DNA of 64,000 nt, taken from Alphaproteobacteria bacterium. GTDB lineage: Bacteria; Pseudomonadota; Alphaproteobacteria; RF32; CAG-239. Numbering within the stretch: position 1 is the first letter of the stretch; each line of letters starts with the position of its first letter. Below, in pieces: positions 7,495 to 64,000 of this stretch. The stretch is taken from the NCBI GenBank assembly GCA_017626035.1, contig JAGAJR010000010.1, positions 581 through 64,580 of the forward strand, written 5' to 3'. The position numbers and the translations under genes were made by a program. The notes below the pieces were generated by a model that searched no databases, was not told where the DNA came from, and worked only from the letters and a program-made list of their open reading frames with translations.

Positions 7495-8073
7495 ATGAGA
7501 AAAAGTGAAAATCTTGAACAGGTTCTTCCTGGAATGTATGTTTATGCGGACGGGCTGGTTTCTTCCGAAATTATTCCTAATCGCCAGATTAAAGCTGTTG
7601 TCGGATATGTTGCTGAAGGAAAGGTTTATGCCGTTTGTTTGAAAGAGACTGAACTTCCATGGTCAAGTGATCGTTTGTTGGTTCCGGAAACAAAAACAAT
7701 GATAAGCGGCAAGGAAGCAACAAAAAAAATATTGGAAACGGCTTGGGCTCAAGGAAAAAAAGCAGAAGCGGCTCAATGGTGTCATGATTACGCACAAGAC
7801 GGTGTTAAATCAGGGGAAGCCTTTTTAGCATCTTTGTATGAGTGGGAAATTTTATTAGCCAATAAAGATGCGATTAATGCCTCATTGAAACGTTTGGGGG
7901 GGGCGACTTTATTTCAATCATATTGGTTGTCTAACGAGTACAATAGTCATAATTCTCGGAGGTTGACCTTGATTCATGATTGTTACTATATCTACGGTAA
8001 GAGTTCTTGTTACTACATCTATGGTAAGAGTTATGATAACTATGTCCGTCCGGTTATTTCTTTTGAGCTTTGA
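7495..8073 (+). CDS. DUF1566/C-type-lectin-fold-like protein without signal peptide
   Basis: AAQWC...FLASLYEW...IN.SL...YWLSNEY...YVRPVISF pattern resembles CLec-fold (Lcl C-terminal/DUF1566) domains; aligns with the ORF at 63378. Confidence 0.6.
   Translation: MRKSENLEQVLPGMYVYADGLVSSEIIPNRQIKAVVGYVAEGKVYAVCLKETELPWSSDRLLVPETKTMISGKEATKKILETAWAQGKKAEAAQWCHDYAQDGVKSGEAFLASLYEWEILLANKDAINASLKRLGGATLFQSYWLSNEYNSHNSRRLTLIHDCYYIYGKSSCYYIYGKSYDNYVRPVISFEL
7981..8034 (+). repeat. 27-bp in-frame tandem duplication (CYYIYGKSS / CYYIYGKSY)
   Basis: TGTTACTATATCTACGGTAAGAGTTCT followed by TGTTACTACATCTATGGTAAGAGTTAT (3 mismatches). Confidence 0.9.
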
Positions 8074-60838: not shown

Positions 60839-61786
60839 ATGAAACAGTCGTTATATAAATCTTTGGCTTTGCATTTTACGGTCTTTCTATTGTTCATAAT
60901 AGACGTTCCGTTTTTTTGGCATAGAAATATGACAATCAGCCAGGTGCCGATTATTGTTGATTTGAATGACGTGAAAATTTCCGAGATGACGAATCTTCCG
61001 CCGAAGGCCAAATTCGGCGAAGAGGAAAAAAAGGCTTCGACCATCAAACGCAAGGTTGAAGAAAATTATACTCAGGAAGAAGTGAAAAAAGAAGATAAAC
61101 CGGTTAAGAAAGCGGAAGCCGAAGACACCAAACCGGCTCCGAAAGAAGAAACTCCGGAACCGCCGAAAAAAGATTTTTTGGTAGCTCCTCAGCCGAGAAA
61201 GCCTAAAGTTCCGGTCGAGAAAAAAGTGGAAAAGAAACCTGAAACCAAGCCGAAACCGGCTCCTAAAAAAGAAGCCAAAAAAACAGAAACCAAAGAGGAC
61301 AAGAGCAAGCCGAAACTGGCTAATCCGCTGAAGAGCCTGTTGGCTTCGGTTGACGCTCTGGAAAAAGAACAGGGCGAGAAAGACGCGACGGCGACAATCA
61401 AGGAAGGCACTAAAGTCAACAATATGGGGATTGAAGGCGGTGTCGGCGGATCTTATTTCAGCGAATTATCAATTTCGGAGACGGATGCGATAGCCGGACG
61501 TTTGCGGGCTTGTTGGAATTTGGATCCGGGAGCCATGGGCATTAAGGATATGATTATTGAAATCCGGGCCTTTTTGAACCGGGACGGAACGGTGCGGGAA
61601 GTTAAGATTTTGGATACCGCCCGTTATAACAGCGACACACATTTCCGTTCGGTTGCAGACAGTGCAAGGCGTGCGGTTTATATCTGCCAGCCATATTCTA
61701 TTTTTGCCGAAAAATATGCGGATAAATATGATATGTGGAATACGATGCTGCTGCGGTTTAATCCGCTGGACGGCCAAGTCAACTGA
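60839..61786 (+). CDS. tolA: TolA-like protein
   Basis: S..LH TM motif, Lys/Glu/Pro-rich linker, C-terminal CW...SARRAV..C.P domain; follows tolQR. Confidence 0.82.
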   Translation: MKQSLYKSLALHFTVFLLFIIDVPFFWHRNMTISQVPIIVDLNDVKISEMTNLPPKAKFGEEEKKASTIKRKVEENYTQEEVKKEDKPVKKAEAEDTKPAPKEETPEPPKKDFLVAPQPRKPKVPVEKKVEKKPETKPKPAPKKEAKKTETKEDKSKPKLANPLKSLLASVDALEKEQGEKDATATIKEGTKVNNMGIEGGVGGSYFSELSISETDAIAGRLRACWNLDPGAMGIKDMIIEIRAFLNRDGTVREVKILDTARYNSDTHFRSVADSARRAVYICQPYSIFAEKYADKYDMWNTMLLRFNPLDGQVN

Positions 61787-61836
61787 TACGGAAATTTGAA
61801 ATCAACGGAGATAAATGCTTGGAAATAAACCGGAGG

Positions 61837-62232
61837 TTATATCCGGTGATTGGAAAGGCGTTTGTTTTTGGCGTTATCTTTGCCGAGTTGGTAGACACTA
61901 ATCAGATTATCAATGGAATCTTCGACAACATCAATAAATTCTTTGTTATGAGTCATTAGTTTGCGGGAAATTTCTTCGACTTTTTTGCGAACAAGTTTGT
62001 CTTTGCTTGGTTGAACGGAAAAATCAAAAAGGTCGCCGATGTCAATTTCGAGTTTTGTTGCAATTTTATTAAGAGTTTCAATTTTCGGAGAAATTTTTCC
62101 CAATTCAATTCCGGAAATTGTGTTCATAGACATATCCATGTCATAAGCGAGTTCCAGCTGGCTAACGCCTTTAATTTTGCGAAGTTCGCGAATTCTGGCT
62201 CCCAGCTCTATTGCAAAAGTATCATCAGTCAT
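61837..62232 (-). CDS. XRE-family helix-turn-helix regulator
   Basis: LGARIRELRK..GVSQLELA......ISGIELG...P....L.KIA..L. Confidence 0.9.
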   Translation of the reverse strand: MTDDTFAIELGARIRELRKIKGVSQLELAYDMDMSMNTISGIELGKISPKIETLNKIATKLEIDIGDLFDFSVQPSKDKLVRKKVEEISRKLMTHNKEFIDVVEDSIDNLISVYQLGKDNAKNKRLSNHRI

Positions 62233-62292
62233 CCGCTTATATTCCTATTTTATTGTGAATCGATATATACTATAAACTTGTAATTTTTGTGG

Positions 62293-62321
62293 TTGACATT
62301 GATTAATTACTAATATATTAT
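62293..62321 (+). promoter_or_regulatory. Near-consensus sigma70 promoter for the Cys-rich locus
   Basis: TTGACA-17 bp-TATTAT. Confidence 0.65.
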
Positions 62322-62389
62322 GAATTTAACAGTAGAACTTAAAAAAATTAACATTTAATTGTGAATCTTGATTTTTTGAACACTGCTGG

Positions 62390-62456
62390 TGGAAAAGGGG
62401 AAAACCGAAGCCTATACACACATACACACACCTACATAGTATGTTCCCCTTTTCCA
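62390..62456 (+). promoter_or_regulatory. Leader stem-loop with CA-rich loop
   Basis: 13-bp perfect stem TGGAAAAGGGGAA / TTCCCCTTTTCCA enclosing ...TATACACACATACACACACCTACATAG... Confidence 0.55.
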
Positions 62457-62483
62457 GATTTTTATGTGAAAGGACGGTGTAAA

Positions 62484-63353
62484 ATGAAAAAACAAACTCT
62501 GATAACCTCATTGGCAACTGTTTTGTTCTTTGTTCCGGAGCTTTCACAAGCAGCTGTTTGTGCCTTGGGGGGCGACGGTTGTTCTACTCTATCATTTAAT
62601 CAATCAGATCACGATTTCAAGCTGGATGACGGCTGGGAGTGTATGGAAGATGGTTATACGGTAACCTCATGTCCGGCCGGAAAAAAAAGCAGCGGGAGTT
62701 GTCCGTATGCTTCCGGCTATTACAAAGAATGTGTGTGCGATACATCGGTTTATACGAGTTCAAGTTCCTCGCAATGCGGCAGTTTAGCGGATGTAGAAGG
62801 GTGCACGGATGATCACGGGAGTTATTACAAATGCACCTGCGATACAACGATTATGACAACTTGTTCGGGCGGCAGCCAATATGCCTCCGGGACACCTTCG
62901 TGTGTGATGAACGGCGTCTCATACTTTTTGAATGCGGAGTGTGTAACCTGTCAGTCTCCGACGATTTTAAACTCATCCAAAACAGCGTGCGAATGTCCGT
63001 CAAACTATAAGGAATGCAACAGTTCAAACAATGAAATCGGCAGCGGCGTAAGCTGCAGTGTCGGCGATGTTGTAAAGTATCTGACCTGTTCCTGTCCGAC
63101 AAGTTATAAACAGTGCGATTTGGGCGGAGAGGTCGGAGCCAAAAAATGTACGATGAATGGTGTGGATTATTGGTCGGCTTGTAAAACATGCCCTAATTTG
63201 GGAACTCATACCTCTTGTCCAGCAGGATATTTGTGTACGTATGAGGATTGTTCAAAGAAATATTACATTACCGGCTGTGCGACCGGCAATGTGGATGTGT
63301 CGCAATCGTCTTGCAGCTGGTACAGCTGTTGGGGCGTGGTTTGGAGCAAATAG
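62484..63353 (+). CDS. Secreted cysteine-rich repeat protein
   Basis: RBS AAGGA, signal peptide MKKQTLITSLATVLFFVPELSQA, repeated Y..C.C....Y..C modules; start reassigned from 62361. Confidence 0.8.
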   Translation: MKKQTLITSLATVLFFVPELSQAAVCALGGDGCSTLSFNQSDHDFKLDDGWECMEDGYTVTSCPAGKKSSGSCPYASGYYKECVCDTSVYTSSSSSQCGSLADVEGCTDDHGSYYKCTCDTTIMTTCSGGSQYASGTPSCVMNGVSYFLNAECVTCQSPTILNSSKTACECPSNYKECNSSNNEIGSGVSCSVGDVVKYLTCSCPTSYKQCDLGGEVGAKKCTMNGVDYWSACKTCPNLGTHTSCPAGYLCTYEDCSKKYYITGCATGNVDVSQSSCSWYSCWGVVWSK

Positions 63354-63377
63354 CCGAAAAAACTAAGGAGAAGGACT

Positions 63378-64000
63378 ATGACTGATATAATTAGAAAAAT
63401 TATGGGAGCAGGCTTGTTTTTACTCGCTTTCTCCTTGGTGTGCGGAAATGAAGCTCGGGCACAAAGCTGTCTGACTCCGCCAAGCTGCGATACGCTGGGG
63501 TATAAGCAGACTGCAGATGATTGTTCCGGTCAGGAACGGGTATTGAAATGTCCGTTTGACCAGACGAAAATGTTTTGTCTGGACACGATTACGCAAAATC
63601 TGGAAGTAGGGGCAATTTTGTATTCGGATATGACGGTTACGACCGGTATTGTTACCGGCAAAACGCCTATCGGTGTTGTTTTTGATACCAATAAGCGGCT
63701 GGCCGTAGCCATTGACCAATCGTCAAGTACTTTAACTTTCGGCGGATACGGAGCGGATATTCCAAGTCTGGTAAATTGTACCAGTGAACCGTTATCCTGT
63801 GGAACGGATGGTAAGGCGAATACGGCAGCAATCATTGCTTACGGCAAATCAAATGGTATTTCTTATCCGGCAGCCGAGTATTGCAATAAATATACAACAA
63901 CGGGAACAAAAGCCGGAGATTGGCATTTGCCAAGCTATGCCGAGCTGAAAAGCATTTACAATGCTAAAAGTATGATAAATGCAACTTTGAATCTGCTTGG
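63378..64000 (+). CDS. Secreted protein with Cys N-module and DUF1566/CLec-like domain (runs off the window; absent from the ORF track)
   Basis: RBS AAGGAG; MTDIIRKIMGAGLFLLAFSLVCGNEARA|QSCLTPPSCDTLGY...LKCPFD...FC, then VGAILYSD...PIGVVF...AAEYC...GDWHLPSYAEL; no stop before the window end. Confidence 0.8.
   Translation, partial: MTDIIRKIMGAGLFLLAFSLVCGNEARAQSCLTPPSCDTLGYKQTADDCSGQERVLKCPFDQTKMFCLDTITQNLEVGAILYSDMTVTTGIVTGKTPIGVVFDTNKRLAVAIDQSSSTLTFGGYGADIPSLVNCTSEPLSCGTDGKANTAAIIAYGKSNGISYPAAEYCNKYTTTGTKAGDWHLPSYAELKSIYNAKSMINATLNLL

Follow-up and report, generated by a model that had tools for sequence, protein, structure and literature searches.

In Bordetella phage BPP-1, the prototype of the diversity-generating retroelements (DGRs), sequence information flows from a template repeat (TR) to a variable repeat (VR) with changes specific to adenines. 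The element comprises the target Mtd, the accessory protein Avd, the TR and a reverse transcriptase (RT), bRT; the VR forms the 3′ end of the gene for a receptor-binding protein of C-type-lectin fold, and its GC-rich end is followed by a hairpin. The RT carries I/LGxxxSQ and YxDD motifs, and [ILV]GxxxSQ in place of the QGxxxSP of group II introns, together with YxDD, is diagnostic of DGR RTs. Here we analyse a window of 64,000 nucleotides from the chromosome of an uncultured gut alphaproteobacterium of the lineage RF32; CAG-239 (GenBank assembly GCA_017626035.1, contig JAGAJR010000010.1), at the right end of which two adjacent genes encode a secreted cysteine-rich protein and a secreted lectin-like protein, hereafter A and B. 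Very probably, these genes form the front part of a DGR that resides in the chromosome and acts on protein B, a target of DUF1566 type.

DUF1566-type VRs make up category ‘d’, with 14% of DGRs, in Wu et al. 2018 (PMC5758913), and LdtA of Legionella pneumophila is an example. The LdtA DGR is chromosomal and consists of an Avd-type accessory gene, a TR, an RT and a target, a DUF1566-type protein of lectin fold that carries the VR at its C terminus; the same paper describes the target as a surface lipoprotein, thought to expose its varied end. DGRs of gut Bacteroides, according to bioRxiv 10.1101/2024.11.15.621889, act on Type V pilus tip adhesins in which a lectin head sits on a pilin domain that is polymerised into the pilus, and they often reside on integrative and conjugative elements. 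In Fibrobacter, the paralogous ‘Fib_succ_major’ and DUF1566 families have undergone large expansions specific to the lineage; their members are exported and have DUF1566-like domains and conserved cysteines (PMC5758913).

The window corresponds to positions 581-64580 of contig C9 (a C9 position is the window position plus 580) in genome G000, an assembly of 27 contigs and 1.64 Mb; G001, G008, G011 and G014 denote relatives. The gene order is tolA, a divergent XRE-family regulator, a promoter, A, B, two hairpins, avd, TR and RT, in a compact cassette of approximately 3.5 kb from promoter to RT (Table 1). Contig C9 ends within the TR, and the 3′ part of the TR and the RT gene lie at the head of contig C4. 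The two contigs are joined. Assembled contigs from the public gut-metagenome runs X12 (12 kb) and X2 (6.5 kb) span avd through the TR into the start of C4, with 31 or 25 further AAY-rich letters after the end of C9, followed by the 3′ end of the TR and the C4 start. In G001, the whole locus, including tolQ-tolR-tolA, XRE, A, B, avd, TR, RT and a membrane open reading frame (ORF), lies on one 132-kb contig.

The differences between TR and VR are specific to adenines. In an ungapped comparison in G000, 17/34 TR adenines differ in the VR, as opposed to 1/65 other bases (Fisher p = 6e-9). The lone non-adenine mismatch falls on the second-last base of the contig and disappears if the VR is taken to have one AAY codon fewer than the TR; the X12 and X2 contigs give a true TR one codon longer than the G000 VR. 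Read in the frame of B, the TR consists almost entirely of AAC and AAT codons. The same bias is found in G001 (116 nt compared; 16/44 adenines and 0/72 other bases changed), in G014 (13/34 and 0/95) and in G011 (18/40 and 0/80). G000 and G001 have nearly the same TR, and their VRs differ only at adenine sites. At the protein level, the closest ortholog in the collection searched, P0011, differs from B at 2/213 residues before the templated tract, at 16/30 inside it and at 0/7 after it. A contig from run X9 carries another version of the VR, with 10 differences from the TR over 32 letters, all at TR adenines.

The Avd and RT genes of a DGR are in place beside the two repeats. The product of avd matches Pfam bAvd (PF22296) with 63.8 bits, above the cut-off of 40. 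The RT is the sole PF00078 match in G000 and contains the motifs IGNLTSQ and YVDD; among solved structures, it is closest to 8ub7_A (E 1.4e-33), in which IGSLTSQLFAN and RYMDDIVVL correspond to IGNLTSQIFAN and RYVDDFVIV. We take 8ub7_A to be the Bordetella phage RT, its record reading only ‘Reverse transcriptase’; a literature search for this entry yielded no paper. The GC-rich stretch CGTCCGGCCGGTCC ends both VR and TR, and a GC hairpin with a 6-bp stem and a 4-nt loop follows the VR only; this hairpin is invariant in G001, where the shared end of VR and TR is less GC-rich. From its sequence and position, the GC hairpin may serve as the acceptor mark, and the 11-bp hairpin further downstream as a putative operon terminator. 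The cassette XRE-A-B-avd-TR-RT is syntenic after tolA in three genera of uncultured gut Alphaproteobacteria (G001, G011 and G014), with the identity of A and B dropping to 25-32% in G011 and G014. The locus is more than a chance arrangement, because its order and sequence are conserved in three genera and A and B belong to multi-copy families. An RT of this kind is present in 13/41 relatives searched, counting G000, and in 10/24 within the family; among the matches listed, DNA of the locus occurs in 19 runs from 10 studies, all of them gut or animal-associated.

Table 1 Coordinates of the features of the DGR locus and of the tandem template arrays in relatives. Positions are those of the window unless a contig is named.
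Feature	Coordinates	Strand	Basis or remark
TolA-like gene, 316 aa	60836-61786	+	Conserved left neighbour, outside the cassette
XRE-family helix-turn-helix (HTH) regulator, 131 aa	61837-62232	-	Pfam HTH_3 43.1 bits, cut-off 23
First TTGTGAAT box	62253-62260	+	Candidate XRE operator
Sigma-70-type promoter TTGACA-17-TATTAT of the A-B operon	62293-62321	+	11/12 matches
Second TTGTGAAT box	62359-62366	+	Candidate operator in the 5′ leader
Protein A, 289 aa, 31 Cys	62484-63353	+	Predicted secreted; likely start ATG at 62484
Protein B, 254 aa, DGR variable protein	63378-64000 (C9:63958-64722)	+	207/254 codons inside the window
Signal peptide of B, Sec-type	63378-63461	+	Predicted cleavage ARA|QS, from sequence inspection and ortholog alignment
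6-Cys N-module of B, ~38 aa	63468-63578	+	C..PSC..LGY....DC......LKCPFD....FC
Start of the Lcl_C/DUF1566 C-type-lectin-like domain of B, residues ~78-254	63609-64000, continuing past the window	+	Pfam, model, Foldseek
VR, last 38 codons of B	C9:64608-64720	+	B stop codon at 64720-64722
GC hairpin	C9:64749-64764		29 nt past the VR
Terminator-like hairpin, 11 bp	C9:64787-64812		One compensatory change in G001
avd, 122 aa	C9:64956-65324		233 nt past the B stop; Pfam bAvd
TR 5′ part, 62 nt	C9:65417-65478		At the contig end; repeats C9:64608-64669
TR 3′ part, 37 nt	C4:1-37		At the contig head; repeats C9:64684-64720
RT	C4:80-1417		Starts 43 nt after the TR; RVT_1 71.1 bits
Tandem TR array of G011	L023:5789-7354		TRF period 264 x 6.0 copies
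Tandem TR array of G014	L024:6597-8520		TRF period 274 x 5.1 copies
Tandem TR array of G008	L025:6561-8460

Taken together with the fold of B described below, these parts point to the following course of events. The Sec signal would export B. The RT, with Avd, would copy TR RNA into cDNA, misreading adenines, and the cDNA would replace the VR, therefore rewriting approximately 20 AAY-templated codons on the presumed binding face of the lectin. The scaffold would remain unchanged, down to the final seven residues, VRPVLAF. B would then be displayed outside the cell and would bind a changing ligand, for example a phage or a glycan of host or microbial origin, and the N-terminal cysteine module and protein A may help to hold or present it.

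Several observations weigh against the assignment to a DGR or against its present activity. Some of them concern the enzymes: the placement of the RT rests on motifs and context, in model libraries that hold no DGR-specific RT model; its best NCBIfam match is a group II intron RT/maturase, at 97 bits with a cut-off of 300; and Avd matches the NCBIfam model DGR-Avd (NF033474) at E 2.7e-16 but with 59.8 bits, below the cut-off of 80. The TR itself is split over two contigs in the G000 assembly, and approximately 17 of its bases are known from other samples' contigs only. One could suppose that the RT belongs to another system, such as a defence RT, a retron or a group II intron, and that the repeat after avd is a DUF1566 paralog fragment, of which G000 has many; weak matches of the RT to Drt3a and retron models, and the many DRT models among its PADLOC matches, would fit such a view. 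The scores, however, are far below the cut-offs (Drt3a 64 vs 200, retron 61.5 vs 235, in addition to the group II value), the top PADLOC match is a generic ‘RT’ model, and PADLOC assigns no defence-system membership to RT, Avd, XRE or A. In a paralog fragment, changes would be expected at each of the four bases; here, 17/18 differences in the ungapped comparison fall on adenines, and the repeat is non-coding and rich in AAY. An Avd gene stands between target and repeat, where partner genes of the other RT families would be expected, and G001, G011 and G014 have the same layout with the same bias. We regard an RT of another system as extremely improbable.

The other contrary observations concern the recent history of the VR. 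Being one codon shorter than the TR, the G000 VR is not simply a recent copy of it; the RT may have slipped, or a codon was deleted and no rewriting has taken place since. Residues 215-217 of B, encoded at C9:64600-64607, 20-27 nt past the window end, vary between close orthologs (NWY, SYY, GVY, GWN) in a manner that resembles adenine mutagenesis of AAY codons, and the present TRs of G000 and G001 are unrelated to this segment and provide no template for it; in G014, the match between TR and VR is 13 nt longer. The run data consist of assembled contigs, which are blind to rare variants and to transcription. These points would suit a fossil DGR, in which the parts are present, B is no longer diversified in this strain and the VR differences are old, as would the decayed appearance of VR-like ends on C11, on C13 and at C9:8503, with 1-5 non-adenine changes in 38. 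Against a fossil stand the intact reading frames of RT and avd, which are syntenic with and 83-98% identical to those of G001, the near-identity of the TR in two species whose VRs differ at adenine sites only, and the concentration of differences from the otherwise near-identical P0011 in the tract. In addition, contigs from runs X2 and X5, which belong to two studies, break off directly in front of the first mutable adenine and resume at most 7 nt from the last, as expected if the assembly graph branches exactly at the tract borders; heterogeneity of the VR within a single sample is suggested. A fossil seems distinctly unlikely, and we infer that the DGR is active now.

Several VR-like sequences elsewhere were considered as extra targets of the TR and rejected on account of their non-adenine changes, counted over the 38 non-adenine positions of the TR 5′ part: C13:816-877 has 4/38, C9:8503-8564 has 5/38 and C17:19914-19975 has 9/38. 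The candidate C11:1114-1175 plus C11:1223-1259 has 1/38 and 4/27 in its two parts, a 33-nt insertion and no downstream hairpin; this VR-like end (L002, C11:1114-1259) belongs to the closest paralog of the 3′ half of B, with 82% DNA identity. Small DUF1566-like ORFs that have VR-like ends and no signal peptide occur at window 7495-8073 (C9:8075-8653) and at C13:295-939. Judging from their sequences, with 5/38 and 4/38 non-adenine changes with respect to the TR, these two could represent former or decayed targets of the DGR.

Protein B starts 24 nt beyond the stop codon of A and is built from a signal peptide, a short module with six cysteines and a C-terminal lectin-like domain. A conserved lipobox is lacking, because Cys22 is a tryptophan in orthologs. 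Full-length B matches Pfam Lcl_C (DUF1566) with 36.7 bits at residues 163-251, above the cut-off of 34.9, compared with 17.5 bits for the part of B inside the window. The AlphaFold2 model, built from a 100-row alignment (an alignment of 9 orthologs reached a pLDDT of 41.2 only), has a pLDDT of 86.2 and a pTM of 0.71, with approximately 80-85 in the module and above 90 in the lectin domain. In a Foldseek search, the best match of this model is the fimbrial protein 4eps of Bacteroides ovatus (E 1.6e-7); the C-terminal domain of Legionella Lcl, 8q4e_A, follows at E 4.6e-4 (TMt 0.65), and many C-type lectin-like domains match weakly (E 0.3-3). A profile search of PDB sequences with B likewise returned 8q4e_A (E 2.5e-4) and a C-type lectin (E 2.4e-3). 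B is a member of the known DUF1566-type class of DGR targets, category ‘d’, because its VR overlaps the Lcl_C/DUF1566 domain, which has a C-type-lectin-like fold. A preliminary description of this DNA, made from the sequence of the window, had proposed that B combines a compact N-terminal cysteine module with a CLec-like domain and acts as a binding protein; module, domain and fold agree with that proposal.

The cysteine module of B matches no model in Pfam or NCBIfam, and we found no description of an LGY-CPFD module in the literature on Alphaproteobacteria. Within G000, it occurs in 7 ORFs, of which 5 are complete and 2 are cut by contig ends. DUF1566-type C-termini follow it in three of the complete ORFs (on C9, C5 and C10), and the other two (on C8 and C18) have in common an unrelated C-terminal domain for which Pfam gives no match. 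A search of 1.84 billion cluster representatives with a profile of nine modules gives 1,334 matches at E<=1e-3, mostly with the module at residues ~25-65. Among the best 147 of these 1,334, the accompanying domains are Lcl_C (15), phage tail-collar (8), LRR_5 (1), DUF285 (1) and ADGRF3_N (1), and the remainder has no Pfam domain. The module is present in 28/41 genomes of the family and in 17/23 genera, with 1-64 copies per genome, and in 0/149 genomes sampled from other families of the class. In G014, a second DGR target has the same build as B: signal peptide, N-module and DUF1566 domain.

Protein A begins with a stretch that by eye resembles a Sec signal, MKKQTLITSLATVLFFVPELSQA, followed by AVC, and is rich in cysteine: 10.7% of its residues (31/289), compared with a median of 1.3% over 1,592 six-frame ORFs of at least 150 aa. 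It contains four CxC cores with tyrosine or lysine flanks, YYKECVCDTSVY, YYKCTCDTTIM, TACECPSNYKEC and YLTCSCPTSYKQC. The preliminary description had the correct reading frame for A and had seen in it a series of Y..C.C...Y..C modules; the repetition stands, and the strict spacing is found in 1/4 cores. A C-terminal block, CPNLGT..CP.GY.C.YEDCS.KYYITGC, is conserved. Searches of A against Pfam, NCBIfam and PADLOC gave no match, a search among 5.77 billion clusters gave 10 homologs at E<=1e-3, and a search of the ESM Atlas gave a best score of 0.75, below the level of a usable lead. Counting A itself, the family has 15 ORFs in G000, the 14 others matching at E up to 1.6e-4; many lie at contig ends, and most have a leader of the form ...KLAAVC..GGGC. 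Pairs of A-like and B-like genes also occur at C8:46787-48378 and C18:2-1758 with no adjoining DGR. A complex prediction for mature A with mature B scored 0.09, against a mark of 0.32, and gives no answer either way.

The A-like proteins of G011 (L023:9468-9572, minus strand) and G014 (L024:2847-2954, plus strand) end in an LGY..CPFD..FC module, the same module with which the downstream B-like protein starts; A of G000 and G001 has no such C-terminal module. G000 also encodes a large family of cysteine-rich exported proteins of up to 948 aa, with ORFs on C1, C3, C7, C8, C11, C13-C18, C20, C23 and C25-C27. Their leader consists of a signal peptide and the sequence ..ELKPIS..NAVKLAAVC..GGGC.., their repeats are C..GGY...P.N..C..V.Y.G..CY..C modules, and their C-termini vary between one or two DUF1566 domains and beta-helix-like repeats. 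Many copies end at contig ends, and therefore the assembly breaks in them.

The preliminary description had read A and B as the start of a modular adhesin cassette, in which one cysteine N-module, as a putative assembly or targeting unit, is joined to interchangeable C-terminal domains, and had considered it a candidate for an undescribed system. Taken on its own, this reading would have variation arise by exchange among paralogs with no hypermutation. Parts of this have held up: the two genes do open a larger cassette, continued by avd, TR and RT, and the N-module is not unique in the genome, being reused in several ORFs, in most genomes of the family and with varied C-terminal partners. The A and B pairs on C8 and C18 with no DGR, and the frequent position of paralogs at contig ends, as expected of recombining repeats, speak in the same direction. 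The variation at this locus, however, shows the adenine specificity of a TR/VR pair, and Avd and RT are there as well; differences between orthologs are concentrated in 30 templated residues and do not take the form of domain swaps; and neither a recombinase nor an outer-membrane beta-barrel lies downstream, Avd, TR and RT being found instead. The source of variability is thus the RT and TR just past the window, and not interchangeable C-terminal domains. As a sole explanation, paralog exchange is contradicted by the TR/VR statistics, and we consider it very improbable. Modularity is real as a background trait of these proteins, but the cassette itself works by another mechanism. Nor is the system undescribed: DGRs are a described mechanism and B falls in a known target class. 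What may be new here is the occurrence of a DGR in this gut alphaproteobacterial lineage, of which we found no prior mention in literature searches that did not extend to the supplementary tables of the DGR surveys, and the fused cysteine module.

In several relatives, the template region is itself expanded. A tandem array of approximately 6-7 units of about 264-274 bp replaces the single TR between avd and RT in G008, G011 and G014, and each unit contains an AAY-rich, TR-like stretch. Two array units in G014 have their own cognate VR elsewhere, with 10/40 and 13/34 adenines changed, and two in G008 likewise, with 18/41 and 18/39 adenines changed; non-adenine changes are 0 in all four cases. 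The remaining units have imperfect partners only. A cytoplasmic-looking ORF of G014, L031, which resembles the small DUF1566-like ORFs of G000, is near-clean with respect to one TR unit, with 2/68 non-adenine changes. According to PMC6642488, some DGRs have two or six TRs; we found no description of tandem TR arrays of the present kind in the literature, the supplementary tables of the DGR surveys lying outside that search.

A more far-reaching proposal joins these observations. The LGY-CPFD module could be a lineage-specific docking or export handle by which proteins with different heads, dozens of them and as many as 64 in a genome of 1.5 Mb, plug onto cysteine-rich surface partners of type A, as a ‘plug-and-display’ adhesin system peculiar to one family of gut Alphaproteobacteria; an XRE-switched DGR would diversify its lectin heads, and in sister genera the array of 6-7 TRs would let one RT reprogram several heads independently. 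We hold this proposal, taken as a whole, to be rather unlikely.

A spacer of 250 bp separates the XRE gene from A. The regulator contains an HTH_3 domain above the cut-off and has no close paralog in G000, where two weak matches reach E 3.6e-8 and 5.2e-5; in G001, G011 and G014, it stands in the same position with 70-94% identity. Of the 11 promoter-like sites in 61700-64000, the promoter of A and B ranks first; shuffled sequences of this region yield 5.8 +/- 2.3 sites. Both the divergent regulator and the near-consensus promoter had been recognised in the preliminary description and are confirmed. The spacer is kept in G000, G001, G011 and G014, with its -35 and -10 hexamers, two TTGTGAAT boxes and a CA-rich leader, and exact matches to TTGTGAAT number 4 in the 64-kb window, 2 of them in these 250 bp. 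Given the placement and sequence of the boxes, XRE probably controls the A-B promoter through them as candidate operators. The 5′ leader of gene A (window 62400-62483) contains a CA-rich run, ACACACATACACACAC, and, immediately ahead of the start codon, the block ATTTTTATGTGAAAGG; both are kept in four genomes of three genera. Rfam has no match at E<=0.1 to the locus or to the contig that carries the RT. An invertible promoter was considered and rejected, as only weak inverted repeats and no nearby recombinase gene are seen; XRE as part of a repeated cassette was also rejected, the gene and its 861-bp upstream region being unique in G000.

To the left of XRE lie ruvB, a ybgC-like gene, tolQ, tolR and a TolA-like ORF, so the earlier placement of the locus directly after tolA is correct as to position downstream of tolQ/tolR-like ORFs; the identity of the ORF as TolA is less firm, its match to TIGR02794 being weak (23.9 bits, cut-off 59.45). 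A TolA-like neighbour also adjoins the cassette in G001, G011 and G014. In G000, the DGR is flanked by tolA and ligA, and no phage genes were seen nearby. After the RT, at C4:1851-2642, follows an ORF for a multi-pass membrane protein of 263 aa with no Pfam match, kept in G001 (89%), G011 (44%) and G014 (35%). It was rejected as a part of the DGR, having no Pfam match and being absent beside the G008 DGR, and is treated as a neighbour.

An orphan-looking locus thus gains a functional label, targeted hypermutation of a secreted lectin in a gut alphaproteobacterium with a small genome, presumably of use for tracking changing gut ligands. Three features go beyond the DGR descriptions in the literature consulted: an unnamed cysteine-rich module that has expanded to 1-64 copies per genome, a conserved XRE gene and cysteine-rich partner gene beside the target in three genera, and tandem TR arrays in sister genera with at least 2 units that have their own adenine-only VR. 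The XRE and partner genes and the arrays make the regulation of DGRs and multi-template programming testable, and the compact cassette could serve as a natural scaffold for studies of lectin diversification.

The locus shares with BPP-1 the adenine-specific flow from TR to VR, the Avd gene, the position of the VR at the 3′ end of a gene for a lectin-fold protein, and the RT motifs; its GC-rich VR end and the hairpin after it may correspond to those of BPP-1. It is unlike BPP-1 in being chromosomal and in having a DUF1566-type target, as opposed to a phage-borne element that diversifies a tail-fibre protein. The order of parts is target-avd-TR-RT. The LdtA DGR of Legionella is alike in its chromosomal location, in its set of parts and in the C-terminal VR of an exported DUF1566-type protein; unlike the lipoprotein LdtA, B has a signal of the Sec/signal peptidase I type followed by the 6-Cys module. 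B is also predicted to be co-transcribed with a cysteine-rich partner and faces a conserved XRE gene; control of the target operon by such a regulator is absent from the DGR descriptions consulted, the term ‘HTH’ occurring 0 times in PMC5758913. With the Bacteroides DGRs, the locus has in common a gut host and a lectin-like adhesive end, and the B model finds its closest structural counterpart in a fimbrial protein of Bacteroides ovatus. In contrast to the Type V pilus adhesins, neither a pilin domain nor pilus genes are seen here: the head is mounted on a 38-aa cysteine module, and the host is an alphaproteobacterium. The expansion of exported proteins with conserved cysteines recalls the Fibrobacter families, from which this family differs in that NCBIfam TIGR02145 gives no match to B and in that, among the sampled genomes, the LGY-CPFD module is confined to one alphaproteobacterial family.

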